From: a virus
Taxonomy: Duplodnaviria > Heunggongvirae > Uroviricota > Caudoviricetes
Direction: 5' to 3' (one strand)
Length of the DNA: 32,066 bases
Virus record (IMG/VR): IMGVR_UViG_2565956714_000003
In this document: positions 1 to 30,757 of the stretch, piece by piece
Layout: every line of letters begins with the position of its first letter
How positions within the stretch are numbered: the stretch's first letter is position 1
Notes under the pieces: model-generated
The model's input: only the letters and a program-made list of their open reading frames with translations
Told to the model about the DNA's origin: nothing
The model's database searches: none
Program-made: the position numbers and the translations under genes

Positions 1-1164
1 TTACGCCTTCTTTATATCCTCCATAATTCCAGAGTGGGACATATTTGGGACATTATCACCAAAAATGTCGTCTATTTTCCTCGCATGCTCTGTCAAATGA
101 TTAGGCGCAAGGTGAGCATACCTACGAACCATTTCTATGGACTCCCATCCGCCCATTTCCTGAAGCACTGATAATGGGACGCCTGACTGAATCAGCCAGC
201 TTGCCCAGGTGTGTCTGAGGTCATGGAAACGGAAATCTTCAATTCCTGCACGACGACAAGCTGATAGCCATGATGTCTTGCTGTCGATGCGCATCTTCCT
301 GACCGCAGGCGTTAATGTTCCATCTGCTCGCTTAGCCGCCTTGGTATGTACAAACACCCATTTGTGATGCTTGCCTATTTGATCACGCAACACTTTACAG
401 GCGGTATCGTTCAGCGCCACACCAATGGCGCGGTTTGATTTGCTCTCTTCTGGATTCACCCAGGCAACTCGTCGCTGCATGTCGATTTGTTGCCATTCCA
501 GATTTATGATGTTCGACTTTCTCAGACCAGTTGCCAGCGCAAACTTGACGACAGATTTCAGTGGTTCGGGGCACTCATCAATAAGGCGTTTTGCTTCCTC
601 CTTTTCCAGCCATCTGACTCGCTTGTTTCTGACCGCTGGTATCTTGATGACAGGCGCTTTTTCCAGCCACTTCCAGTCGCGTTCTGCAGCACGGAGAATG
701 GCCTTTATCATGGCAAGATGCTTTGCCTTTGTCTGAGTTGATACTGGCTTTGGTTCATAAACAGGCGGTTCTTTACCTTTCCTGATGGCGGCCTGAACTT
801 TCTGTTTCCATATTTCTTTCGTCTTTCTGTTATGCATTCTGCTTACAGCAGAGTAAATCTTTGCCTCCGAGATATCTTTAAGCCTTATACCCTCAAAATG
901 TTCAAGCCAGAACTCAATCCGGCTTTTATCTGAATCGAGAGATTTTTTATCAGCTTTTTCCTCAAGCCATCTTAGGCAGGCCTCTTCAAAAGTGACATCA
1001 GGTAAATCCCCTAGCTTTTCTACTCGCCAGAGTTCTGCTTTTCGCTTGTCGTGCAACTCCTGAGCTTGCCGCTTGTCCTTTGTGCCAAGAGATTCCTTAA
1101 TTCGTTTCCCGCCCGGGAGCGAATACGAGGCATACCATATTTCATTTCTGCGGAAGAGTGACAT
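1..1164 (-). CDS. int: Phage integrase, tyrosine recombinase (P22/DLP12 IntD type)
   Basis: 387-aa ORF; C-terminal HDLRHT...RRYAHL catalytic motifs (H-x-x-R, Y); RBS GAGGAAAG before ATG at 1164; stop codon at 1..3. Confidence 0.93.
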
Positions 1165-1391
1165 TTTCTTTCCTCTGTTATGCCATCACCCGCGCTCACC
1201 TGGACAGTATGCAGCGGAGACTGAAGCGCCGCAATGCAGGCTTGCCGTGTTGTGAGGTAAGGAGATTTTGGCTTGGTTGGATCTTTACGTGTTGCCTGTA
1301 GGCGGCCTGTTCGTATCCAGTTGGTGGCGGTTGGTCTGGATATCTTAAGAAACTGACAGGCCTCATCGAGTGTGAGGCTGTATGATTCCAT
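1020..1391 (-). CDS. xis: Excisionase (AlpA/P22 Xis-like HTH protein)
   Basis: ORF starting [31 protein letters not shown] (helix-turn-helix excisionase signature) directly upstream of int; RBS GAGGT; C-terminal part overlaps int start in another frame. Confidence 0.65.
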
Positions 1392-1641
1392 GGTTACCTC
1401 TGCTTTTTGAACGCATGTCACGTAACTTCTTAATGTGTTCTGCCGTTTCGATCTCTTCTGCTATCCGATCTGCATCAGCTTTATTCACAGGTTCAAAGTC
1501 ATGATTAAAGCGGAACATGCTGGCGATACATGTTCTGCCTTTTCGGATGTAGTGAACTTTGTTGTGGGTAGAACGCAGGATTTTGCAGGGAGTGCCGTGG
1601 TGGTCGACGTACCAGGTGTTAGGAAAAATGATTCTGAACAT
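1363..1641 (-). CDS. Hypothetical small phage protein (92 aa)
   Basis: ORF with RBS GAGGTG 5 nt before ATG at 1641; same strand as the int/xis operon; function not recognised. Confidence 0.5.
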   Translation of the reverse strand: MFRIIFPNTWYVDHHGTPCKILRSTHNKVHYIRKGRTCIASMFRFNHDFEPVNKADADRIAEEIETAEHIKKLRDMRSKSRGNHGIIQPHTR

Positions 1642-1688
1642 TTTTACACCTCAGTTGGACGATGTTGAAATTTGCTGCTTTGAGGCCA

Positions 1689-1907
1689 TCACAGTCCCCA
1701 TTGTTTGTTCTTAAGTTCGATCTCCTCCTGGCAACTCGCACAAGTTCGACAACCCTGAACAGCCAGGCGTCTTCGCTCATCTATCGGATCGCCACACTCA
1801 CAACAATGAGTTGCGGATACAGTCTGGTAGTTCAGACGACGCATTTTTATTGCTGTATTGCGCTGTAATTCTTCGATTTCTGATGCTGAATCAATGATGT
1901 CTGCCAT
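1689..1907 (-). CDS. TraR/DksA-family C4 zinc-finger protein (72 aa)
   Basis: Cys pattern C-x2-C-x17-C-x2-C (CECGDPIDERRRLAVQGCRTCASC) in a small ORF typical of phage TraR-like proteins. Confidence 0.75.
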   Translation of the reverse strand: MADIIDSASEIEELQRNTAIKMRRLNYQTVSATHCCECGDPIDERRRLAVQGCRTCASCQEEIELKNKQWGL

Positions 1908-1955
1908 CTTTCATTAATCCCTGAATTGTTGGTTAATACGCTTGAGGGTAAATGC

Positions 1956-1985
1956 GAATAATAAAAAAGGAGCCTGTAGCTCCCT
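1956..1985 (-). terminator. Rho-independent terminator-like hairpin downstream of orf61 on the minus strand
   Basis: Stem GGAGC/GCTCC (1969..1973 / 1979..1983), 5-nt loop, followed on the minus strand by a U-run (plus strand AATAATAAAAAA 1957..1968). Confidence 0.5.
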
Positions 1986-2005
1986 GATGATTTTGCTTTT
2001 CATGT

Positions 2006-2221
2006 TCACCGTTCCTTAAAGACGCCGTTCAACATGCCGATCGCCAGGCTTAAATGAGTCGGTGTGAATCCCATCAGCGTTACCGTTTCGCGGTGCTTCT
2101 TTAGTACGCTACGGCAAATGTCATCGACGTTTTTATCCGGAAAATGCTGTCTGGCTTTTTTGATTTCAGAATTAGCCTGACGGGCAATGCTGCGAAGGGC
2201 GTTTTCTTGCTGAGGTGTCAT
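2006..2221 (-). CDS. Lambda orf61-like hypothetical protein
   Basis: ORF MTPQQENALRSIARQANSEIKK... at the position lambda orf61 holds relative to orf63/orf60a/exo; start assigned to the internal Met at 2221, with an alternative upstream start at 2287. Confidence 0.6.
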   Translation of the reverse strand: MTPQQENALRSIARQANSEIKKARQHFPDKNVDDICRSVLKKHRETVTLMGFTPTHLSLAIGMLNGVFKER

Positions 2222-2297
2222 TGAACAAGCCCCATGTCGGCAAGCATAAGCACACAGAATATGAAGCCCGCTGCCAGAAAAATGCATTCAGTGGTTG

Positions 2298-2489
2298 TCA
2301 TACCTGGTCTCTCTCATCTGCTTCTGCTTTCGCCACCATCATTTCCAGCTTTTGTGAAAGGGATGTGGCTAACGTATGAAATTCTTCGTCTGTTTCTACT
2401 GGTATTGGCACAAACCTGACTCCAATTTGAGCAAGGCTATGTGCCATCTCAATACTCCTTCTTAACTCAACAGGAGATGCTTTGTGCAT
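2298..2489 (-). CDS. Lambda orf63-like protein
   Basis: 63-aa [44 protein letters not shown]..., recognised as lambda orf63. Confidence 0.8.
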   Translation of the reverse strand: MHKASPVELRRSIEMAHSLAQIGVRFVPIPVETDEEFHTLATSLSQKLEMMVAKAEADERDQV

Positions 2490-2650
2490 ACCGCCTCCCG
2501 TTTATTATTTATCTTCTCAGCCAGCCGCTGTGCTTTCAGGGGATTTCTGATAACAGAAAGGCCGGGAAATACCCAGCCTCGCTTTGTAACGGAGTAGACG
2601 AAAGTGATCGCGCCTACCCGGATATTATCGTGAGGATGCGTCATCGCCAT
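2462..2650 (-). CDS. Lambda orf60a-like protein
   Basis: 62-aa [41 protein letters not shown]..., recognised as lambda orf60a; sits immediately downstream of exo, overlapping the exo stop. Confidence 0.75.
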
Positions 2651-3321
2651 TGCTCCCCAAATACAAAACCAATTTCAGCCAGTGCCTCGTCCATTTTTTC
2701 GATGAACTCCGGCACCATCTCGTCAAAACTCGCCATGTACTTTTCATTCCGCTCAATCACGACATAATGCAGGCCTTCACGCTTCATGCGCGGGTCATAG
2801 TTGGCAAAGTACCAGGCATCTTTTCGCGTCACCCACATGCTGTACTGCACCTGGGCCATGTAAGCCGATTTTATTGCCTCGAAACCACCGAGCCGGAATT
2901 TCATGAAATCCCGGGAGGTAAACGGGCATTTCAGTTCAAGGCCGTTGCCGTCACTGCATAAACCATCGGGAGAGCAGGCGGTGCGCATACTTTCGTCGCG
3001 ATAGATGATCGGGGATTCAGTAATATTCACGCCGGAAGTGAATTCAAACAGGGTTCTGGCGTCGTTCTCGTACTGTTTTCCCCAGGCCAGCGCCTTAGCA
3101 TTAACTTCCGGAGCCACACCGGTGCAAACCTCAGCCAGCAGGGTGTGGAAGTAGGACATTTTCATGTCAGGCCACTTCTTTCCTGAGCGGGGCTTTGCTA
3201 TCACGTTGTGAACTTCTGAAGCGGTGATGACGCCGAGCCGTAATTTGTGCCATGCATCATCCCCCTGTTCGACAGCTCTCACGTCGATCCCGGTACGCTG
3301 CAGGATAATGTCCGGTATCAT
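2641..3321 (-). CDS. exo: Lambda exonuclease (Red alpha)
   Basis: 226-aa ORF near-identical to lambda Exo ([54 protein letters not shown]...). Confidence 0.97.
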
Positions 3322-4103
3322 GCTGCCACCTTCTGCTCAGTGGCTTTCTGTTTCAGGAATCCAAGAGCTTTCACTGCTTCGGCCTGTGTCAGTTCTGACG
3401 ATGCGCGAATGTCGCGGCGAAATATCTGGGAACAGAGCGGCAATAAGTCGTCATCCCATGTTTTATCCAGGGCGATCAGCAGAGTGTTAATCTCCTGCAT
3501 GGTTTCATCGTTAACCGGAGTGATGTCGCGTTCTGGCTGACGTTCTGCAGTGTATGCAGTATTTTCGACAATGCGCTCGGCTTCATCCTTGTCATAGATA
3601 CCAGCAAATCCGAAGGCCAGACGGGCACACTGAATCATGGCTTTATGCCGTAACATCCGTTTGGGATGCGACTGCCACGGCCCCGTGATTTCTCTGCCTT
3701 CGCGGGTTTTGAATGGTTCGCGGCGGCATTCATCCATCCATTCGGTAACGCAGATCGGATGATTACGGTCCTTGCGGTAAATCCGGCATGTACAGGATTC
3801 ATTGTCCTGCTCAAAGTCCATGCCATCAAACTGCTGGTTTTCATTGATGATGCGGGACCAGCCATCAACGCCCACCACCGGAACAATGCCGTTCTGCTTA
3901 TCAGGGAAGGCGTAAATTTCTTTCGTCCACGGATTAAGGCCGTACTGGTTGGCGACGATCAGCAATGCGATGAACTGCGCATCGCTGGTATCACCTTTAA
4001 ATGCCGTCTGGCGAAGAGTGGTGATCAGTTCCTGTGGGTCGACAGAATCCATGCCGACACGTTCAGCCAGCTTCCCTGCCAGCGTTGCGAGTGCTGTACT
4101 CAT
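3318..4103 (-). CDS. bet: Lambda Bet (Red beta) single-strand annealing protein
   Basis: 261-aa ORF near-identical to lambda Bet ([38 protein letters not shown]...); ATGA overlap with exo. Confidence 0.97.
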
Positions 4104-4108
4104 CCGTT

Positions 4109-4405
4109 TTATACCTCTGAATCAATATCAACCTGGTGGTGAGCAATGGTTTCAACCATGTACCGGATGTGTTCTGCCATGCGCTCCTGAAACTCAACAT
4201 CGTCATCAAACGCACGGGTAATGGCTTTTTTGCTGGCCCCGTGGCGTTGCAAATGATCGATGCATAGCGATTCAAACAGGTGCTGGGGCAGGCCTTTTTC
4301 AATGTCGTCTGCCAGTTCTGCCTCTTTCTCTTCACGGGCGATCTGCTGGTAGTAACGCGCCCAGCTCTGAGCCTCAAGACGATCCTGAATGTAATAAGCG
4401 TTCAT
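4109..4405 (-). CDS. gam: Lambda Gam (RecBCD inhibitor), 98-aa form
   Basis: [37 protein letters not shown]... matches lambda Gam; RBS CAGGAG; an in-frame stop lies upstream, so only the short form is encoded. Confidence 0.95.
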
Positions 4406-4480
4406 GGCTGAACTCCTGAAAATGGCTGTGAAAATATCGCCCGCGAAATGCCAGGCTGATTAGGAAAACAGGAAAGGGGA

Positions 4481-4687
4481 TTAGCGATTCAGGCCGTTAC
4501 CGCGTCCGTCGAGAAAAACTTCCACGAGCAAATCACGGGTATAAGTGCGCTCGATGCCGCGATGCAGATAAAGCCGTCCGCGTAAATTAGCTGATGCAGT
4601 CCAGGTACCATCTTTGTGTTTGACCAGCATTCCTGGCATGACCGCGCCGCGATTAACGGTCTGCGTTCCGTAATGTTGATGAACCAT
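4481..4687 (-). CDS. Hypothetical early protein (68 aa) at the kil/cIII position of the leftward operon
   Basis: [32 protein letters not shown]... with strong RBS AGGAG 7 nt before ATG at 4687; the ORF track extends it to 4771 (96 aa) with a weaker start. Confidence 0.5.
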
Positions 4688-4959
4688 AAAAACTCCTGCC
4701 CGTAAGCTGGGCTGCTGAACATATAGAGACTTCTGCGCGTATTCAGGCGGTGGATGGCCGCCGGTTGTCATAACTAAGCCGCCTCGTTGAAGCGACTAAG
4801 GTATGAAATGTTGAGTTGATTTCAGCTGGTCACACCGACGTTCACGCGTCCGTTTCACCCCTCGCACTCCCCGAAGCCTGCTGAAATTCAAACTGCGGAT
4901 CTAAGCGGTCATCGCAACGGTGAATCAGGTGGTTGCCGTATCGTTGTGTTGTTGCGATG

Positions 4960-5045
4960 AACTTATTTAAAACTATAGTTGTTTTACCGTCAACAACAAA
5001 AGTTGTTTTATTGGTTGTTTTAGATATAACTGGTTGTATTTAGGA
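4960..5045 (-). promoter_or_regulatory. Candidate OL/pL operator-promoter region for the leftward early operon
   Basis: Cluster of the operator heptamer shared with OR: AACAAC-AAAA-GTTGTT palindrome 4992..5007, TGGTTGT at 5012..5018 and 5031..5037, plus palindrome AACTATAGTT 4971..4980. Confidence 0.5.
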
Positions 5046-5131
5046 TGGATTTATTTTGTGACTTGAATCGCATAGCGATAACTGAAGCGAGGTTATGGTG
5101 GTTTTTTTAACGGTGTGTGTGATGAGGGGAG

Positions 5132-5161
5132 GGCAAAAGAAAACCCGGCACGGTGACCGGG
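5132..5161 (-). terminator. Rho-independent terminator-like hairpin downstream of cI
   Basis: Stem CCCGG/CCGGG (5144..5148 / 5157..5161) with 8-nt loop, followed on the minus strand by UUUUCUUUUG (plus strand CAAAAGAAAA 5134..5143). Confidence 0.5.
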
Positions 5162-5282
5162 ATTCTTACGCCGTTAGGTAAAGATATTATTGCGGTGGCT
5201 TAATATTACTACCTAGAGCAAAGATAGGAATTAGTTCTTTACTGAATGAGCACAATGCCCAGTTGATAATTTTTAATTGGTA

Positions 5283-5972
5283 CTACCCATGCTTCCTATA
5301 TGTCTGCGGCATGCTCCCAATAACCTTACCGAAGATGAACACCCGGTTCATCTCGTCTTTCTCGATCGGGTCCCACGGTGAGTAGCTTTTGTTATCAGAG
5401 ATGACCAGCAGCTTATCCTTCATCATTTGCAGGCGCTTTACATGGGCTGTGTCGTCGTACAGAAACGCATAGATACCATCACCGTCGAAAGATTTAACTG
5501 TGATATCAACGAACAGCAGATCACCTGGTTCGATCGTTCCTGACATGCTGTCACCACGCACGTTAATGATGCGGATATTTTCCGCCTTCCTACCATCGAA
5601 CATATGACGAGCATCGTCAAACGAGTACTCAACCGAGCGTAGAACTTCTACAAACTCACGGTTGATGACTCCCGGCCCAGCACTGACTTCTATATCAAGA
5701 ACGTCAATCTTGAAGTATTTGGAATGGCTGACAGTTGATTGTATTGGTTGCACTGTACTGTCTGACATATTTCCAACGCCAGAAGATAACCATTCTGCGC
5801 GCACACCCAAAGCGTTCGCGATCTCCACGATTTTAGTTGTTTGATTAGCTTTCCCTGTTTCGATTTTCTGAATAGCAGCTTGGCTAACCCCGACCAAATC
5901 CCCAAGCGCCTTTTGTGTAAGGCCTCGCGCTAATCTGGCTTCTTTAAGTCTTTCTGAGAGTGTTGTTTTCAT
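5283..5972 (-). CDS. cI: CI-type prophage repressor (HTH_XRE N-domain, LexA/S24 peptidase-like C-domain)
   Basis: ORF with HTH LTQKALGDLVGVSQAAIQKIETG, an Ala-Gly (SAGPG) candidate autocleavage site, and GDSM...VKRL Ser-Lys dyad motifs; divergent from cro; start assigned to Met at 5972, while the track ORF reads through the operators to 6038. Confidence 0.85.
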   Translation of the reverse strand: MKTTLSERLKEARLARGLTQKALGDLVGVSQAAIQKIETGKANQTTKIVEIANALGVRAEWLSSGVGNMSDSTVQPIQSTVSHSKYFKIDVLDIEVSAGPGVINREFVEVLRSVEYSFDDARHMFDGRKAENIRIINVRGDSMSGTIEPGDLLFVDITVKSFDGDGIYAFLYDDTAHVKRLQMMKDKLLVISDNKSYSPWDPIEKDEMNRVFIFGKVIGSMPQTYRKHG

Positions 5973-6076
5973 AGTCCAAATGTACAACCAAGGTTTTATT
6001 TCATCAAACGAAAATGGTTGTTGACTAAAAACAACCATAGTTTTAATCTTGATTCAAATTAACCACGGAGGTTGTT
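5973..6076. promoter_or_regulatory. OR operator / divergent promoter region between cI and cro
   Basis: Heptamer ACAACCA at 5984..5990 and 6031..6037, TGGTTGT at 6016..6022; perfect inverted repeat ATGGTTGTT-N7-AACAACCAT (6014..6038) overlapping a TTGACT -35-like hexamer (6021..6026) with TTTAAT -10-like hexamer at 6042..6047. Confidence 0.7.
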
Positions 6077-8996: not shown

Positions 8997-9329
8997 ATGA
9001 ACCCTTATATTTATCTTGGTGGTGCAATACTTGCAGAGGTCATTGGTACAACCTTAATGAAGTTTTCAGAAGGTTTTACACGGTTATGGCCATCTGTTGG
9101 TACAATTATTTGTTATTGTGCATCATTCTGGTTATTAGCTCAGACGCTGGCTTATATTCCTACAGGGATTGCTTATGCTATCTGGTCAGGAGTCGGTATT
9201 GTCCTGATTAGCTTACTGTCATGGGGACTTTTCGTCCAACGGCTGGACCTGCCAGCCATTATAGGCATGATGTTGATTTGTGCCGGTGTGTTGGTTATTA
9301 ATCTATTGTCACGAAGCACACCACATTAA
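8997..9329 (+). CDS. emrE: Small multidrug resistance (SMR) efflux transporter EmrE
   Basis: 110-aa ORF MNPYIYLGGAILAEVIGTTLMKFSEGFTRLWPSVGTIICYCASFWLLAQTLAYIPTGIAYAIWSGVGIVL... recognised as EmrE (four TM helices, conserved membrane Glu in the first helix). Confidence 0.95.
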   Translation: MNPYIYLGGAILAEVIGTTLMKFSEGFTRLWPSVGTIICYCASFWLLAQTLAYIPTGIAYAIWSGVGIVLISLLSWGLFVQRLDLPAIIGMMLICAGVLVINLLSRSTPH

Positions 9330-9359
9330 AAATAATTTGTTTCTAAACTACTAAAATAT

Positions 9360-9400
9360 GGAGGCTCTTATATTTATATGAGCCTCGTTTTATGCTTTTT
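9360..9400 (+). terminator. Rho-independent terminator downstream of emrE
   Basis: Stem GGAGGCTC/GAGCCTC with AT-rich loop, followed by GTTTTATGCTTTTT. Confidence 0.6.
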
Positions 9401-9585
9401 GTTAATGTCTTTATTTTTTTATGTATTCTTTTGTGCTTTCAAGATTATGGCGTAAGAAAATTGCAATACGATTATTGTTGTATATTCAAGATAATGTGAC
9501 CTTAATTGTCTTTTTAAATAAAAATTAAACAAAAATTATATCCCACCACTAATGTTTATAAAAGCATACGTTAGCAGGTGTCACC

Positions 9586-11112
9586 ATGAAAAAAGCCATA
9601 GCATATATGCGATTTTCATCACCAGGTCAGATGTCTGGCGACTCATTAAACCGACAGAGAAGACTTATTGCTGAATGGTTAAAGGTAAATAGTGATTATT
9701 ATCTTGATACCATAACATATGAAGATTTAGGATTAAGTGCATTCAAAGGAAAGCATGCACAATCAGGAGCTTTTTCGGAATTTTTAGATGCTATAGAGCA
9801 TGGTTATATATTGCCAGGAACTACATTGTTAGTTGAAAGTCTGGACAGACTTTCAAGAGAAAAAGTCGGTGAAGCGATTGAACGTCTGAAATTGATTTTG
9901 AATCACGGTATTGATGTTATAACTCTTTGCGACAATACAGTCTATAATATTGACTCTTTGAATGAGCCATATTCATTAATAAAAGCCATACTTATAGCAC
10001 AAAGGGCAAATGAAGAAAGCGAGATAAAGTCAAGTCGGGTTAAATTATCATGGAAGAAAAAACGGCAGGATGCACTGGAATCAGGTACGATTATGACGGC
10101 GTCTTGTCCGAGATGGCTCTCCTTAGATGACAAAAGAACGGCTTTTGTTCCAGACCCCGACAGGGTGAAAACTATTGAGCTAATTTTTAAACTCAGGATG
10201 GAAAGGCGCTCATTGAATGCAATAGCCAAGTATTTAAATGATCATGCTGTAAAGAATTTCTCAGGAAAAGAAAGTGCATGGGGACCTTCTGTAATTGAAA
10301 AATTATTAGCGAATAAAGCTCTGATAGGTATATGCGTACCTTCATATCGTGCAAGAGGGAAAGGAATAAGTGAAATCGCGGGCTATTATCCCAGAGTCAT
10401 ATCAGATGATTTGTTTTACGCTGTACAGGAAATTCGGTTGGCACCTTTTGGTATTAGCAATAGTAGCAAGAATCCTATGCTAATAAATCTACTTCGAACA
10501 GTTATGAAGTGTGAGGCTTGTGGTAATACCATGATTGTTCATGCGGTATCTGGAAGTTTGCATGGCTATTATGTTTGTCCGATGAGAAGATTACATCGAT
10601 GTGACAGGCCATCAATAAAAAGAGATTTGGTTGATTATAATATCATTAATGAATTGCTTTTTAATTGTAGCAAAATTCAACCAGTTGAAAACAAGAAAGA
10701 TGCTAATGAAACTTTAGAGTTAAAAATTATTGAGCTTCAGATGAAAATTAATAATTTAATCGTTGCATTGTCTGTCGCGCCTGAAGTTACCGCTATAGCA
10801 GAGAAAATAAGACTATTAGATAAGGAATTACGAAGGGCTTCGGTATCATTGAAAACTTTGAAGAGTAAAGGTGTAAATTCATTCAGTGATTTTTATGCTA
10901 TTGACTTAACCAGTAAAAATGGACGAGAGTTATGCCGTACACTTGCCTATAAAACATTCGAAAAAATCATAATTAATACGGATAATAAAACCTGTGATAT
11001 CTATTTTATGAATGGCATTGTTTTTAAACACTATCCTTTAATGAAAGTAATATCCGCCCAGCAGGCGATAAGTGCTCTCAAATATATGGTTGATGGTGAG
11101 ATTTATTTCTAA
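9586..11112 (+). CDS. ybcK: Large serine recombinase (resolvase/invertase-type catalytic domain plus recombinase and Cys-rich zinc-ribbon region)
   Basis: 508-aa ORF; N-terminal AIAYMRFSSPGQ matches the serine-recombinase active-site motif Y-x-R-x-S-x3-Q; Cys cluster CEACGN...CPMRRLHRCDRP; gene body AT-rich. Confidence 0.85.
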   Translation: MKKAIAYMRFSSPGQMSGDSLNRQRRLIAEWLKVNSDYYLDTITYEDLGLSAFKGKHAQSGAFSEFLDAIEHGYILPGTTLLVESLDRLSREKVGEAIERLKLILNHGIDVITLCDNTVYNIDSLNEPYSLIKAILIAQRANEESEIKSSRVKLSWKKKRQDALESGTIMTASCPRWLSLDDKRTAFVPDPDRVKTIELIFKLRMERRSLNAIAKYLNDHAVKNFSGKESAWGPSVIEKLLANKALIGICVPSYRARGKGISEIAGYYPRVISDDLFYAVQEIRLAPFGISNSSKNPMLINLLRTVMKCEACGNTMIVHAVSGSLHGYYVCPMRRLHRCDRPSIKRDLVDYNIINELLFNCSKIQPVENKKDANETLELKIIELQMKINNLIVALSVAPEVTAIAEKIRLLDKELRRASVSLKTLKSKGVNSFSDFYAIDLTSKNGRELCRTLAYKTFEKIIINTDNKTCDIYFMNGIVFKHYPLMKVISAQQAISALKYMVDGEIYF

Positions 11113-11310
11113 ATAATGATCTTGGATTTTAAGTTATGCTATGATGATAAAGTGCAAGACAGAATTAATTATCTTTAACGAAACTTAATGGGTAATTACT
11201 TTGTTTGCTCCCACAAGCGAGTTTTGTACGGCTGTATTGGGGTAGTAAATGAGCTATACAATCTTAATCATTTGTTAGGTGAGAACTCTTGGTCGCAGAT
11301 TCAAATACTG

Positions 11311-11360
11311 AAAATACGTGACAAATTATTATGAGCAAAATGGTGTATGTCACGTATTTT
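11311..11360. repeat. 50-bp palindromic element: 13-bp perfect inverted repeats flanking a 24-bp spacer
   Basis: AAAATACGTGACA (11311..11323) and its exact reverse complement TGTCACGTATTTT (11348..11360) in the AT-rich ybcK-ybcL intergenic region. Confidence 0.8.
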
Positions 11361-11575
11361 GAATGGTAGGTTAAAAAATAACACCGACTTTCGTAGGTAT
11401 TACTAATAATAAAGCAGAGTTTTTAATAGTATCAATGTGCTTTGTGTATATTGTGGCAAATAATTGGGTTGGGGGTACAATTGTGATTGCTTTTGCATGA
11501 ACATTGCGCCTTTATGCATAATGAGATAAAGGAATATCAAATAAAATAACGATAGGTCATAACAAAGAGGTTTTT

Positions 11576-12127
11576 ATGAAAACACTTATCGTTTCAACTG
11601 TATTGGCATTCATAACATTTTCTGCGCAGGCTGCAGCATTTCAGGTCACTAGTAATGAAATAAAAACAGGAGAGCAACTTACAACGTCTCATGTCTTTTC
11701 TGGATTTGGGTGTGAAGGTGGTAATACATCGCCCTCATTAACCTGGTCTGGTGTTCCTGAAGGTACCAAAAGCTTTGCCGTAACTGTATATGATCCAGAT
11801 GCACCTACAGGCAGTGGTTGGTGGCATTGGACTGTTGTTAATATTCCAGCAACAGTAACATATTTGCCCGTTGATGCAGGAAGACGTGATGGAACAAAAC
11901 TGCCGACTGGTGCTGTTCAAGGCCGAAATGATTTTGGCTATGCTGGGTTTGGTGGCGCATGTCCTCCTAAAGGAGATAAACCACATCATTACCAGTTTAA
12001 AGTATGGGCTCTAAAAACTGAAAAGATTCCTGTAGATTCTAACTCCAGCGGAGCGTTAGTTGGTTATATGCTTAATGCTAATAAAATCGCAACCGCTGAG
12101 ATAACACCAGTTTATGAGATAAAGTAG
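11576..12127 (+). CDS. ybcL: Periplasmic PEBP/RKIP-family protein (UPF0098)
   Basis: 183-aa ORF with signal peptide MKTLIVSTVLAFITFSAQA and PEBP-like core (YDPDAP...GWWHW...HHYQFKVWAL). Confidence 0.9.
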   Translation: MKTLIVSTVLAFITFSAQAAAFQVTSNEIKTGEQLTTSHVFSGFGCEGGNTSPSLTWSGVPEGTKSFAVTVYDPDAPTGSGWWHWTVVNIPATVTYLPVDAGRRDGTKLPTGAVQGRNDFGYAGFGGACPPKGDKPHHYQFKVWALKTEKIPVDSNSSGALVGYMLNANKIATAEITPVYEIK

Positions 12128-12136
12128 GGTGAGAGT

Positions 12137-12934
12137 ATGCTGGCAAGAGGTAAGACTAACTTAAAGATCGAAGAAATACGGATGCATAAACATCATGAGA
12201 TTCATAGGGTTAAGCCTCTTATGCCAGCTTTGTGTCGTATCCGTCAGGGAAAGAAAGTTATCAATTGGGAGACGCATACTTTAACTGTTGATAATAATCA
12301 AATAATATTATTTCCTTGTAGTTATGAATTTTATATTGAGAATTATCCTGAAGCAGGGCTTTATCTTGCAGAAATGCTTTACTTACCCATTGATTTAATT
12401 GAGAGGTTCCAAAAACTTTATACGGTAACTGATCAAATACGTAACAAAACAAGTTTCTTTTTACCTCAGAATCCTGAGTTAATATATTGTTGGGAGCAAC
12501 TAAAAACATCTGTTTCCCGAGGCTTCTCAACTAAAATTCAGGAGCACTTAGCAATGGGCGTTCTACTTTCGTTAGGAGTGAATCATGTTAATCATTTACT
12601 TTTATCATATAGTAAACAATCATTGATAAGTCGTTGTTATAACCTGCTGCTATCCGAACCCGGCACAAAATGGACAGCAAACAAGGTTGCACGATATCTC
12701 TACATTTCTGTTTCTACATTACATCGCCGTCTAGCAAGCGAGGGGGTAAGTTTCCAAAGTATACTGGACGATGTGAGGTTAAATAATGCGTTGTCTGCTA
12801 TACAAACGACGGTAAAACCTATAAGCGAGATTGCCAGAGAAAATGGTTATAAGTGTCCTTCTCGTTTTACTGAAAGATTTCATAATCGTTTTAATATAAC
12901 ACCAAGAGAGATAAGAAAAGCTTCCAGAGAGTAA
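12137..12934 (+). CDS. ybcM: AraC-family transcriptional regulator
   Basis: 265-aa ORF starting 9 nt after the ybcL stop (operon-like); C-terminal AraC-type HTH region ([21 protein letters not shown]...[18 protein letters not shown]). Confidence 0.85.
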
Positions 12935-12998
12935 AAGTGTTTTAAGAAGGAGCAATTCTATCGATTTTGATTTTGGGAAATCAACACGGCATAATTAT

Positions 12999-13027
12999 GT
13001 CACCGGAGCCTGAACAACTCCGGTGAC
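12999..13027 (+). other. Perfect 10-bp stem-loop between ybcM and ylcH
   Basis: GTCACCGGAG (12999..13008) ... CTCCGGTGAC (13018..13027) with 9-nt loop; no U-run follows. Confidence 0.5.
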
Positions 13028-13050
13028 TTCTGCGCTAAACGGGGACGTTT

Positions 13051-13152
13051 ATGCGCACATACAATCCAACCTCTCTTCTCCATTCACAGATGCAGAAATG
13101 CACCTGCGATATTTTGCATCCAGCGTTTGATCTCTGCGGAGGTGAAGCGTGA
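13051..13152 (+). CDS. ylcH: Small protein YlcH-like (33 aa)
   Basis: Short [36 protein letters not shown] with RBS GGGGA; its stop overlaps the ybcN GTG start region. Confidence 0.55.
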
Positions 13153-13604
13153 ACCTCCCACAAGATGGTATCAAATTGCATCGCGGTAACTTCACCGCTA
13201 TCGGTCGGCAGATCCAGCCTTATCTGGAGAACGGCAAATGCTTTCGCATGGTGCTTAAACCGTGGCGCGAGAGACGCAGTCTTTCCCAGAATGCACTCAG
13301 CCACATGTGGTACAGCGAAATCAGTGAATACCTCATCAGCAGGGGTAAAACGTTCGCCACTCCAGCTTGGGTAAAAGATGCTCTCAAACACACATATCTC
13401 GGTTATGAAACCAAAGACCTGGTTGATGTCGTAACCGGTGATATCACCACTATCCAGTCGTTACGCCATACCTCCGATCTTGATACCGGAGAGATGTATG
13501 TCTTCCTGTGTAAGGTTGAAGCCTGGGCGATGAATATTGGTTGCCATCTGACTATTCCGCAGAGCTGCGAGTTCCAGCAGCTCCGCGACAAGCAGGAGGC
13601 GTAA
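13149..13604 (+). CDS. ybcN: NinB-like recombination protein (YbcN)
   Basis: 151-aa ORF with GTG start preceded by GGAGG; recognised as the NinB/YbcN family. Confidence 0.85.
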
Positions 13605-13774
13605 TGGCTACACCGCTTATTCGTGTCATGAACGGACACATCTACAGAGTACCAAATCGTCGTAAGCGTAAACCTGAGCTGAAGCCATCCGAAATACCAA
13701 CACTGCTCGGGTATACCGCCAGCCTGGTTGATAAAAAATGGTTGCGACTGGCAGCAAGGAGGAGTCATGGCTGA
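13604..13774 (+). CDS. ninE: NinE protein
   Basis: 56-aa [59 protein letters not shown]; TAATG overlap with the ybcN stop. Confidence 0.85.
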   Translation: MATPLIRVMNGHIYRVPNRRKRKPELKPSEIPTLLGYTASLVDKKWLRLAARRSHG

Positions 13775-14057
13775 TTTGAGAAAAGCAGCGCGTGGTCGGG
13801 AATGCCAGGTAAGAATCCCTGGCGTATGTAATGGCAACCCTGAAACGTCTGTACTGGCACATATCCGGCTGACTGGATTGTGCGGCACCGGTACCAAACC
13901 GCCAGACCTGATTGCCACCATTGCATGTTCTGCCTGCCACGACGAAATCGACCGCCGCACACATTTTGTCGATGCTGCATATGCAAAAGAATGCGCGCTG
14001 GAAGGTATGGCGAGAACACAGGTTATCTGGCTGAAAGAGGGGATTATTAAGGCGTGA
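13767..14057 (+). CDS. ybcO: YbcO-like Cys-rich putative nuclease (DUF1364)
   Basis: 96-aa ORF with RBS AAGGAGGAG; Cys/His-rich ([11 protein letters not shown]...CSACHDEID); overlaps the ninE 3' end. Confidence 0.8.
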
Positions 14058-14416
14058 ATACCTACAGCATCACATTACCCTGGCCTCCGAGCAATAATCG
14101 CTATTACCGCCATAATCGCGGGCGCACGCACGTCAGCGCAGAGGGGCAGGCATACCGCGATAACGTCGCCCGAATCATTAAAAACGCAATGCTGGATATC
14201 GGCCTGGCTATGCCTGTGAAAATCCGCATTGAGTGCCACATGCCGGATCGCCGTCGCCGTGACCTGGATAATCTGCAAAAAGCCGCTTTTGACGCACTCA
14301 CTAAAGCAGGTTTCTGGCTGGATGATGCTCAGGTCGTTGATTACCGCGTTGTGAAGATGCCTGTTACCAAAGGTGGGAGGCTGGAACTGACCATCACCGA
14401 AATGGGGAATGAATGA
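14054..14416 (+). CDS. rusA: RusA Holliday-junction resolvase
   Basis: 120-aa [41 protein letters not shown]... recognised as RusA; GTG start overlapping the ybcO stop (GTGA). Confidence 0.93.
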
Positions 14417-14553
14417 TGTTTGAGTTTTATATGGCAGAACGTCTTCGCCACCGCTGGGGGCGTCTGCGCTTATATCGTTTCCCCGGTTCTGTTTTGACCG
14501 ATTACCGAATACTGAAGAATTACGCCAAAACCCTGACAGGAGCAGGAGTATGA
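14413..14553 (+). CDS. ylcG: Small protein YlcG-like (46 aa)
   Basis: [49 protein letters not shown] overlapping the rusA stop. Confidence 0.6.
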
Positions 14554-14638
14554 AGTCAGAGATAACAATCAACTAATACTGTTTCGTTGATTTTTGCTTG
14601 TAATTGGCGTTCTGGTCTGATTTTTGTGGAGTAAGTTG

Positions 14639-15022
14639 ATGCGTGATATTCAGATGGTTCTTGAGCGTTGGGGAGCGTGGGCGGCTAATAATCATGAAGA
14701 TGTGACCTGGTCGTCCATTGCCGCCGGTTTTAAGGGATTAATTACTTCAAAAGTAAAATCTCGCCCGCAATGTTGTGACGATGACGCGATGATTATTTGC
14801 GGGTGCATGGCCCGTCTGAAAAAGAACAACAGCGATTTGCACGATTTATTAGTAGATTATTATGTAGTCGGTATGACATTCATGTCACTGGCAGGTAAGC
14901 ATTGCTGCTCTGATGGTTATATCGGGAAAAGGTTACAGAAGGCTGAGGGCATAATTGAAGGGATGTTAATGGCATTAGATATCCGGTTAGAGATGGATAT
15001 CGTTGTTAATAACTCTAATTAA
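14639..15022 (+). CDS. quuD: Late-gene antiterminator Q (QuuD type)
   Basis: 127-aa [27 protein letters not shown]... with Cys-rich region ([16 protein letters not shown]); RBS GGAG; lies immediately before the late region. Confidence 0.85.
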
Positions 15023-15034
15023 TATGCCAATTGT

Positions 15035-15073
15035 TTACTAAAAATTATTAAAAATGGGGCGTTGAGACGCCCC
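15035..15073 (-). terminator. Candidate rho-independent terminator for the porin gene (minus strand)
   Basis: Hairpin GGGGCG-TTGAGA-CGCCCC (15056..15073) followed on the minus strand by a U-rich run (plus strand CTAAAAATTATTAAAAAT 15038..15055). Confidence 0.5.
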
Positions 15074-15161
15074 CAAAAATAAAGGGTAATATATAACAGA
15101 AGGTTTATATAGTTAGAAGCAAGGTTGTGCTTCTAAAGGAAGTGGCTTGAGGGAGCCACTT

Positions 15162-15203
15162 ATATGTTGGGGAGGCAACGCCTCCCGCAACATATCTTTT
15201 TCG
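15162..15203 (+). terminator. Strong rho-independent terminator on the plus strand downstream of Q (tR'-like candidate)
   Basis: About 15-bp stem ATATGTTGGGGAGGC / GCCTCCC(G)CAACATAT with 3-nt loop, followed by CTTTTTC (15196..15202). Confidence 0.6.
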
Positions 15204-16131
15204 TAATCAGATTAGAACTGGTAAACCAGACCTACAGCAACGATGTCATCAGTGCTTACACCGAGTGCTTTAGTGAAGTCATTTTTGTCAAGCAGGTTGA
15301 TTTTGTAATCAACGAAAGTAGACATATTTTTGTTGAAGTAATAGGTTGCACCTACATCAACATATTTGACTAAGTCCTGATCGCCCCATACTCCAAGATC
15401 TTTACCTTTAGATTGCAGGTAAGCAACGGACGGACGCAGACCGAAATCGAACTGATATTGTGCAACAGCTTCGAAGTTTTGGGCTTTATTAGCAACGAAG
15501 TGATCAGCAAATACAGTCATATTCTGGGTTTCAGAATAGGTAGTGGCCAGGTAAATGTTGTTAGCGTCATATTTCAGACCTGCGGCCCAAACTTCTGCAT
15601 TTTTACCGGAAGCAAATACTTCAGGAAGAACTTTCCCTGCATTAACTTGAGTGTCGGTACGATCAGATTTCGCATAAGTTGCACCGATACCGAATCCTTC
15701 GTATTCATAGGTAGCAGAGAAACCGAAGCCATCACCGTTACCTTCAGTGTAGTTATCGAAATCGCTACGATCGTTTTTGCCTTGGTACTGAGCAGCAAAG
15801 TTCAGACCATCAACCAGACCAAAGAAGTCGTTGTTACGATAGGTTGCAACACCAGTGGTGCGACCAGTCATGAACACATCTGTTTGGGTCCAGGTATCGC
15901 CACCGAATTCTGGCAGAACGTCAGTCCACGCACCGATGTCGTATGCTACACCGTAGTTACGGCCGTAATCGATTGAGCCGTAGTCACCGAATTTCAGGCC
16001 TGCAAATGCAAGACGGGTTTTGTCTTTGGAGGAACCTTGAGATTCAGCGCGGTTGCCTTTGAATTCATATTCCCACTGACCGAAACCAGTCAGTTGATCG
16101 TTGATTTGGGTTTCACCTTTGAAGCCAAGAC

Positions 16132-16140
16132 GGGCATAAG
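16132..16140. repeat. Target-site duplication (left copy) GGGCATAAG
   Basis: Identical 9-mer directly flanks both IS ends (16132..16140 and 17198..17206). Confidence 0.95.
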
Positions 16141-17197
16141 GGCTTTGTTGAATAAATCAGATTTCGGGTAAGTCTCCCCCGTAGCGGGTTGTGTTTTCAG
16201 GCAATACGCACGCTTTCAGGCATACCTGCTTTCGTCATTTTGTTCAGCGCTCGTACCAGGGCCATAGCCTCCGCAACCTGACCATCGTAGTCACGCAGCG
16301 TCAGTGAACCCCCGAACAGCTGTTTTACCCGGTACATCGCCGTTTCCGCTATCGAGCGACGGTTGTAATCTGTTGTCCATTTCCACCGCGCATTACTCCC
16401 GGTCATTCGCTGATTAGCCACTGCACGGTTACGGTCTGCATATTCACCGGGCCAGTAACCCGCACCTTTTCGGGGAGGGATAAGCGCGCTGATTTTCTTA
16501 CGCCGCAGTTCATCGTGACATAGCCGGGTATCGTAAGCGCCATCGGCGGCGGCTGACCTGATTTTCCGGTGGGTTTGCCGGATTAACCCGGGGAAGGCCT
16601 CTGAGTCCGTAACGTTGTTCAGCGACAGGTCAGCGCAGATGATTTCATGTGTTTTACTGTCAACGGCGAGATGCAGCTTACGCCAGATACGGCGGCGTTC
16701 CTGGCCATGCTTTTTGACTTTCCACTCGCCTTCACCGAAGACCTTCAGCCCGGTGGAATCAATTACCAGGTGTGCGATTTCACCCCGGGTGGGCGTTTTG
16801 AAACTGACATTAACCGACTTTGCCCGCCTGCTGACACAGCTGTAATCCGGGCAGCGTAGCGGAACGTTCATCAGAGAAAAAATGGAATCAATAAAGCCCT
16901 GCGCAGCGCGCAGGGTCAGCCTGAATACGCGTTTAATGACCAGCACAGTCGTGATGGCAAGGTCAGAATAGCGCTGAGGTCTGCCTCGTGAAGAAGGTGT
17001 TGCTGACTCATACCAGGCCTGAATAGCTTCATCATCCAGCCAGAAAGTTATGGAGCCACGGTTGATGAGGGCTTTATTGTAGGTGGGCCAGTTGGTGATT
17101 TTGAACTTTTGCTTTGCCACGGAACGGTCTGCGTTGTCGGGAAGATGCGTGATCTGATCCTTCAACTCAGCAAAAGTTCGATTTATTCAACAAAGCC
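16141..17197 (-). mobile_element. IS903/IS102-type insertion sequence (IS5 family), complete, 1057 bp
   Basis: Perfect 18-bp terminal inverted repeats GGCTTTGTTGAATAAATC (16141..16158) and GATTTATTCAACAAAGCC (17180..17197); 9-bp direct target duplication; one transposase ORF. Confidence 0.9.
16197..17165 (-). CDS. IS903-type transposase (DDE)
   Basis: 322-aa ORF filling the IS; start 32 bp inside the right inverted repeat. Confidence 0.85.
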   Translation of the reverse strand: MKDQITHLPDNADRSVAKQKFKITNWPTYNKALINRGSITFWLDDEAIQAWYESATPSSRGRPQRYSDLAITTVLVIKRVFRLTLRAAQGFIDSIFSLMNVPLRCPDYSCVSRRAKSVNVSFKTPTRGEIAHLVIDSTGLKVFGEGEWKVKKHGQERRRIWRKLHLAVDSKTHEIICADLSLNNVTDSEAFPGLIRQTHRKIRSAAADGAYDTRLCHDELRRKKISALIPPRKGAGYWPGEYADRNRAVANQRMTGSNARWKWTTDYNRRSIAETAMYRVKQLFGGSLTLRDYDGQVAEAMALVRALNKMTKAGMPESVRIA

Positions 17198-30341: not shown

Positions 30342-30757
30342 GTTTTGCCCTGAAACTGGCGCGTGAGATGGGGCGACCCGACTGGCGTGCCATGCTTGCC
30401 GGGATGTCATCCACGGAGTATGCCGACTGGCACCGCTTTTACAGTACCCATTATTTTCATGATGTTCTGCTGGATATGCACTTTTCCGGGCTGACGTACA
30501 CCGTGCTCAGCCTGTTTTTCAGCGATCCGGATATGCATCCGCTGGATTTCAGTCTGCTGAACCGGCGCGAGGCTGACGAAGAGCCTGAAGATGATGTGCT
30601 GATGCAGAAAGCGGCAGGGCTTGCCGGAGGTGTCCGCTTTGGCCCGGACGGGAATGAAGTTATCCCTGCTTCCCCGGATGTGGCGGACATGACGGAGGAT
30701 GACGTAATGCTGATGACAGTATCAGAAGGGATCGCAGGAGGAGTCCGGTATGGCTGA
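29919..30757 (+). CDS. T: Tail assembly chaperone G-T fusion made by programmed -1 ribosomal frameshift
   Basis: Slippery heptamer G GGA AAG (30317..30323) near the G 3' end; the -1 frame continues open to 30757 and encodes lambda gpT-like sequence (...MFDGELSFALKLAREMGRPDWRAMLAGMSSTEYADWHRFY...). Confidence 0.85.
30317..30323 (+). promoter_or_regulatory. Programmed -1 frameshift slippery sequence GGGAAAG
   Basis: Heptamer in the zero-frame context G_GGA_AAG at the G/T junction. Confidence 0.85.

Follow-up and report, generated by a model that had tools for sequence, protein, structure and literature searches.

TraR-like proteins of phages, plasmids and their hosts

A characterised relative of the gene analysed here is orf73 of phage lambda, whose product turns down the transcription of ribosome genes while the phage grows. 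Purified lambda Orf73 competes with DksA for the E. coli RNA polymerase (RNAP) and inhibits two promoters, rpsT P2 and rrnB P1; for the latter the IC50 is near 50 nM, and, as with TraR, ppGpp is not required (Gopalkrishnan et al. 2022, mBio, PMC9239242). Most of the activity is lost in the D3N or D6N variants. Induced lambda Orf73 complements a dksA-null strain on minimal medium, and expression of the protein from pL slows the growth of the host. In the induced phage, pL drives the gene at 5-20 min, and when lysogens carrying either an in-frame deletion of orf73 or the D3A/D6A substitutions are treated with mitomycin C, the phage yield is 3-4 fold lower. Those lytic promoters of lambda that were tested were unaffected by the protein, and host promoters are activated weakly if at all, a property for which the extra cysteines of Orf73 are a possible cause; the promoters that TraR activates are not activated by lambda Orf73 (all from PMC9239242).

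Two other members of the superfamily serve as references. TraR of the F plasmid (PDB 5W1S, 6N57/6N58) is encoded in the tra operon, and in the cryo-EM complexes of TraR the N-terminal helix lies in the secondary channel of RNAP with its acidic tip near the active site, the zinc globule rests on the rim helices and beta' Si3, and the C-terminal helix touches beta Si1; this is the basis of the mechanism proposed below. DksA of E. coli (PDB 1TJL) occupies the same RNAP site as lambda Orf73; it is a protein of 151 aa with the tip borne by a coiled coil, and it is fully active only with ppGpp. Among phages, P2 Orf82, VHML Orf8, VP882 Orf61 and X. bovienii Gp34 bind RNAP and complement a dksA-null strain (PMC9239242).

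We have analysed a stretch of 32,066 nucleotides (hereafter the window) that contains the left arm, the immunity region and the head and tail genes of a lambdoid phage. Positions 1..4500 are 99.6-99.8% identical to the Escherichia phages Turner and PhiR34_1, and from about position 1412 onward the window is 97-98% identical to lambda-like phages.

A TraR-like gene in the left arm

The frame at 1689..1907 is a real gene and not a chance ORF. Its 72-aa product, MADIIDSASEIEELQRNTAIKMRRLNYQTVSATHCCECGDPIDERRRLAVQGCRTCASCQEEIELKNKQWGL, matches the Pfam family PF01258 (prokaryotic DksA/TraR C4 zinc finger) with 37.3 bits (E 2.8e-9), above the curated cut-off of 24.9 bits, and phrog_54 ('DksA-like zinc-finger protein') matches residues 1-70 with an E-value of 3.6e-26. 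The NCBIfam model of the TraR family, TIGR02419, aligns over the full length with 53.9 bits (E 2e-14), narrowly below its curated cut-off of 59.7 bits. When the PDB was searched, the F-plasmid TraR chains 5w1s_M and 6n57_M matched residues 1-69, and the best E-value was that of E. coli YbiI (2kgo), in a match to the finger region only. A single-sequence AlphaFold2 model reached a pLDDT of 58, too low to serve in a fold search, with low-confidence helices at residues 5-29 and 57-70; for lambda Orf73 a confident TraR-like model (pLDDT 93) has been published (PMC8614690). A second TraR-like gene, such as the one found in 933W, was looked for across the window, and only one such motif was present.

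The identity with lambda Orf73 is 87% (62 of 71 residues), and the Shigella phage SfI protein is 100% identical to that of the window. Compared with lambda, the codon differences comprise 11 synonymous and nine non-synonymous changes, and synonymous changes are in excess in the comparisons with lambda, Stx2-86 and phage 75/02 Stx. The non-synonymous differences from lambda are confined to the linker (positions 27, 29 and 30), position 49 and the C-terminal tail, which accounts for five of the nine (EEIELKNKQWGL in the window against EDLELISKQRGSK).

The functional motifs were examined in an alignment of ten sequences: the window protein, lambda Orf73, six other phage homologs (from Stx2-86, Shigella phage 75/02 Stx, and Salmonella P22-like, Klebsiella, P2-like Yersinia and Pseudomonas phages), F TraR and the part of E. 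coli DksA from the tip to the end, whose sequence was confirmed to be identical to 1TJL. Eight residues are invariant (D6, A8, C35, C38, R46, C56, C59 and E64), and R47 and G39 are nearly so. The protein starts MADIIDSA and thus has the complete acidic tip D3-x-x-D6-x-A8, including D3, equivalent to D3/D6/A8 of TraR and D71/D74/A76 of DksA. The zinc finger reads C35-x2-C38-x17-C56-x2-C59, R46/R47 are the equivalents of R48/R49 of TraR, and E64 is the conserved acidic residue of the C-terminal helix. As in lambda Orf73, there are two extra cysteines, C36 and C53 (TraR positions 38 and 55), and the stretch E44-R45-R46-R47-L48 forms an ExxRL motif where TraR has ExxRK. The window protein aligns with TraR from end to end (72 against about 73 aa); its alignment with DksA begins only at the tip, and an 11-column gap stands where DksA has the second helix of its coiled coil.

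The family assignment made in the first-pass annotation, a 72-aa C4 zinc-finger protein of the TraR/DksA type, is thus upheld by PF01258, phrog_54, the TraR chains and the motif alignment. That annotation had also named alignment with TraR and DksA as a test, next to complementation of a dksA mutant, and the lack of the aspartate-containing tip as what would refute it; the tip is there, and the claim stands.

Comparison with the described systems

On identity, synteny and the six-cysteine signature, the protein belongs to the ortholog group of lambda Orf73. It shares with it the DxxDxA tip, the six cysteines, the ExxRL motif and the length class; its gene is likewise placed after orf60a, orf63 and orf61 and is preceded by an identical hairpin. 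The differences are the nine substitutions and a length one residue shorter, a different downstream neighbour (ea22/ea8.5 in lambda, a DUF4222 gene in the window) and the state of orf61, which is frameshifted in lambda and intact here.

The likeness to F-plasmid TraR extends over the full length and includes D3, D6 and A8 of the N-terminal helix, the same C4 spacing, the equivalents of R48/R49 and the Glu of the C-terminal helix. Identity is, however, only about 30%, the window protein has two cysteines more, and its gene is part of a phage early-left operon and not of a tra operon. With DksA it has in common the zinc finger and the DxxDxA acidic tip; in the window protein one N-terminal helix replaces the coiled coil of DksA, and the ortholog from lambda is active in the absence of ppGpp. 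Judged by its sequence, it is not DksA proper, because both the coiled coil and the N-terminal region are absent. P2 Orf82, VHML Orf8, VP882 Orf61 and X. bovienii Gp34 are of the same family as the window protein. P2 Orf82 and the other phage TraR homologs differ in their lower identity, their genomic context and a higher IC50 on E. coli RNAP; the homolog of the P2-like Yersinia phage has 42% identity to the window protein.

Gene order around orf73

The features of the region are collected in Table 1. The minus-strand order int-xis-...-orf73-orf61-orf63-orf60a-exo-bet-gam is as in lambda, and lambda ea22 and ea8.5 are absent from the window. The gene had initially been placed between orf61 and the excisionase; orf61 is indeed its neighbour on one side, but on the other the DUF4222 gene intervenes before the excisionase-like ORF. 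This last ORF shares 145 nt with int, and the near-identical records NC_049954 and PV340559 do not annotate it. The hairpin inside orf60a is probably lambda tL3; pKD46 (lambda 31088-33241) carries tL3 after exo. The same hairpin is the predicted terminator t1 of PMC4195576.

Table 1 Position of the left-arm features and of cI in the window
Feature	Position	Strand	Remarks
Tyrosine integrase (int)	1..1164	minus	387 aa
Excisionase-like ORF (xis)	1020..1391	minus	123 aa; HTH_17; phrog_2907 full length
DUF4222 gene	1363..1641	minus	92 aa; next gene downstream of orf73, where lambda has ea22/ea8.5
orf73 (very probable ortholog of lambda orf73)	1689..1907	minus	ATG to TGA, 72 codons; encodes the TraR-like protein
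31-codon ORF (predicted)	1914..2009	minus	GTG start and orf61 stop overlap (GTGA; in lambda, ATGA)
t2 hairpin, intrinsic-terminator-like	1957..1985	minus	stem-loop 1985..1967, tail 1966..1957
orf61 homolog	2006..2221	minus	intact; 71 aa from MTPQQ, 93 aa if started at ATG 2287
orf63 homolog (DUF1382)	2298..2489	minus	
orf60a homolog (DUF1317)	2462..2650	minus	contains the t1 hairpin
t1 hairpin	2558..2580	minus	9 pairs, 6 G-C; strongest terminator-like hairpin of the region, inside orf60a
exo	2641..3321	minus	
bet	3318..4103	minus	
gam	4109..4405	minus	
cI	5283..6038		

The orf61 difference comes down to a single base. The run at window positions 2156..2161 is A6, against A7 in the lambda reference, and the additional base splits the lambda gene into a truncated orf61 and a 60-codon frame that is left unannotated; that lambda Orf61 is truncated had already been noted (PMC8614690).

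The hairpin upstream of orf73

A terminator-like hairpin at 1956..1985 had been proposed to set the gene apart from those upstream. The hairpin is real, its exact limits are given in Table 1, and it lies between orf61 and orf73. On the coding strand the stem-loop reads AGGGAGCT-ACA-GGCTCCTT, followed by the tail TTTTATTATT; it is located 20 nt past the orf61 stop and 49 nt ahead of the orf73 ATG, and is the central element when the surrounding 66 nt are folded to minimum free energy (-16 kcal/mol, z = -2.5). Compared letter by letter, it is base for base the predicted terminator t2 of Bloch et al. (2014, PLoS One, PMC4195576), AAAATCATCAGGGAGCT ACA GGCTCCTTTTTTATTATT, with -8.3 kcal/mol and the same in lambda and Phi24B. 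The hairpin is identical in lambda (30663..30691) and in Stx2-86, and its core is invariant in 8/8 phages. The whole orf61-orf73 junction containing it is 98% identical to lambda and Stx2-86. It occurs in 179 phage records, always with 95% identity or more and with a stem core that never varies. Because the junction is nearly identical in all of these records, neither covariation nor conservation can be used as an argument for or against t2.

In lambda and Phi24B a weak promoter, p1, that overlaps t2 has been predicted by BPROM (-35 TCATCA, -10 TTTTATTAT), and the genes after t2 behave differently in the two phages: their mRNA is lower in lambda, and in Phi24B the mRNA of orf73 and ea22 is above that of the upstream genes, especially after induction with H2O2 (PMC4195576). 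A consensus scan of the minus strand between t2 and the orf73 ATG (at least 9/12 matches) gave no sigma-70-like site. The hairpin alone is no proof that the gene has its own regulation; separate regulation of orf73, a possibility already raised in PMC4195576, stays a hypothesis.

The 31-codon ORF between orf61 and orf73 includes the whole t2 hairpin, and only 6 nt separate its stop from the orf73 ATG; it has no match in PHROG. Ribosome profiling, cited in PMC8614690, assigned a 31-aa peptide, orf2313, to the corresponding part of lambda, and the ORF of the window is probably the same as orf2313. One could imagine that orf73 is gated by translation and not by a promoter, with ribosomes from orf61 restarting on the 31-codon ORF, covering t2 and so reducing termination, and finally re-initiating at orf73. 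Such gating would explain why mRNA drops after t2 in lambda, in which orf61 is frameshifted, and not in Phi24B, in which it is intact; t2 and p1 are identical in the two phages despite the difference in mRNA, which was left unexplained in PMC4195576. We nevertheless consider gating improbable, because in phage AU6Stx1 a one-base deletion in the T tract frameshifts the 31-codon ORF.

The interval between gam and cI

The interval from gam to cI (window positions 4406..5282) shows no gene for an N-like antiterminator. All that it has is an ORF at 4481..4771 for a KilR-like FtsZ inhibitor, plus a leader some 190 nt long. Searches against Rfam yielded no match in the whole window at gathering thresholds, and none at E-values up to 1 in 1600..5300. 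An HK022-type put RNA in the pL leader was tried as an N-free route of read-through and discarded, the leader having no similarity to that of HK022. An arginine-rich 31-codon ORF at 4796..4891, tried as a minimal N, starts with TTG, has stops just upstream and is unsupported. Phage 3W has the same layout between gam and cI, also without an N-type gene.

Function and expression of the orf73 product

We consider it very likely that 1689..1907 is the ortholog of lambda orf73, of the TraR branch, and that its product acts by binding RNAP in the following way; nothing in the sequence speaks against it. The 72-aa protein would bind the host RNAP without binding DNA. Its N-terminal helix would enter the secondary channel and place D3 and D6 of the DxxDxA tip near the active site, while the zinc-bound globule would sit on the channel rim (rim helices) and the beta' Si3 insertion through R46/R47, and the C-terminal helix would contact beta Si1. 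Host resources would thereby be diverted to phage production. Once the phage is induced or infects a cell, the gene would be expressed with the rest of the leftward early operon, and transcription from pL would meet a terminator-like hairpin twice on its way, at t1 within orf60a and at t2 immediately ahead of orf73. Since the two proteins are 87% identical and all the residues named above are conserved, we infer that the window protein works like lambda Orf73, binding RNAP and inhibiting promoters; transcription from pL is likewise expected for the window gene by analogy. Its potency could differ from that of lambda Orf73, because five of the substitutions fall in the tail, the part said to touch beta Si1. 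The earlier proposal of binding in the RNAP secondary channel and of a reprogrammed host transcription agrees well with the experiments on lambda Orf73, complementation of dksA included (PMC9239242). The target, host transcription, can be kept; the setting would be lytic growth and not the resting prophage, because in lambda it is induction or infection that brings on expression of the gene from pL.

Other readings of the gene concern either what the protein binds or when it is made. As a zinc ribbon of the DksA/TraR superfamily it might have a role away from RNAP, resembling YbiI or blocking the initiation of host replication directly; YbiI gives the best PDB E-value, and earlier work tied the cluster orf73-ea22-ea8.5-orf55 to inhibition of host replication initiation. 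The match to YbiI, however, leaves uncovered the DxxDxA tip that the full-length match to TraR includes, purified lambda Orf73 acts directly on RNAP with an effect that is mostly lost in D3N/D6N, and dnaA mRNA is hardly affected (PMC9239242), so that we regard a role of this kind as very improbable. Regarding expression, the gene might be read from its own promoter, the predicted p1, independently of pL and possibly in the lysogen or under oxidative stress, in which case a resting prophage would tune host transcription. The p1 prediction was made in lambda and Phi24B at identical sequence, to which the window is also identical, and the excess of Phi24B orf73 and ea22 mRNA over that of the upstream genes after H2O2 (PMC4195576) points in the same direction. 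Yet the p1 hexamers are poor and their spacing is odd, the consensus scan gave no sigma-70-like site on the minus strand, and in lambda orf73 is transcribed from pL 5-20 min post-induction and its phenotype tracks pL induction (PMC9239242). A promoter of its own is accordingly unlikely, if the least unlikely of the alternatives.

The opposite possibility is that the gene is not read at all. With no N homolog between gam and cI and two terminator-like hairpins upstream of orf73, transcripts from pL would end at t1 or t2 and orf73 would be silent cargo, its reading frame kept only through recent acquisition of the block from exo to xis; in 179 phage records the identity of the block is 95-100%, and its conservation carries little weight. 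Against this, the ORF is intact and has the excess of synonymous changes towards lambda, Stx2-86 and phage 75/02 Stx, the essential xis and int lie downstream and need the same read-through or a promoter of their own, t2 is weak (-8.3 kcal/mol, PMC4195576), and near-identical phages have been isolated viable. We give silent cargo hardly any credit, and an RNAP inhibitor expressed early from pL is the reading that we prefer.

Immunity region and cargo genes

Elsewhere in the window, a perfect 9-bp inverted repeat, ATGGTTGT-N7-ACAACCAT, is located at 6014..6038, at the cI start between cI and cro, and repeats of the ACAAC/GTTGT type are found left of cI at about 4965..5040. Both are likely to be operators, of an immunity type differing from that of lambda. 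The nin region (about 9000..16300) carries, by identity to PhiR34_1, cargo of the DLP12 type that includes an SMR-family transporter, ybcK, ybcL, ybcM, ybcN, ybcO, rusA and ylcG. By the same comparison, an OmpD/NmpC-like porin follows Q on the opposite strand.

Distribution and significance

The gene is already known as to its family, its mechanism, the phenotype of its ortholog, the upstream hairpin and its routine annotation, and in E. coli genomes PGAP names it 'TraR/DksA family transcriptional regulator'. Annotation of phage records is more uneven. In the lambda reference NC_001416 nothing is annotated between ea22 and orf61, where a 73-codon ORF at complement 30392..30613 is lambda orf73, and in PV340559 the gene is labelled hypothetical. 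That some reference phage records omit orf73 is a reminder of this annotation gap. Relatives of the protein are found in 513 phage records, and orf73 DNA is present, at roughly 90% identity or more, in 3299 of the 5426 complete E. coli genomes (about 61%). Most E. coli genomes would thus carry at least one prophage copy of a ppGpp-independent inhibitor of rRNA transcription.
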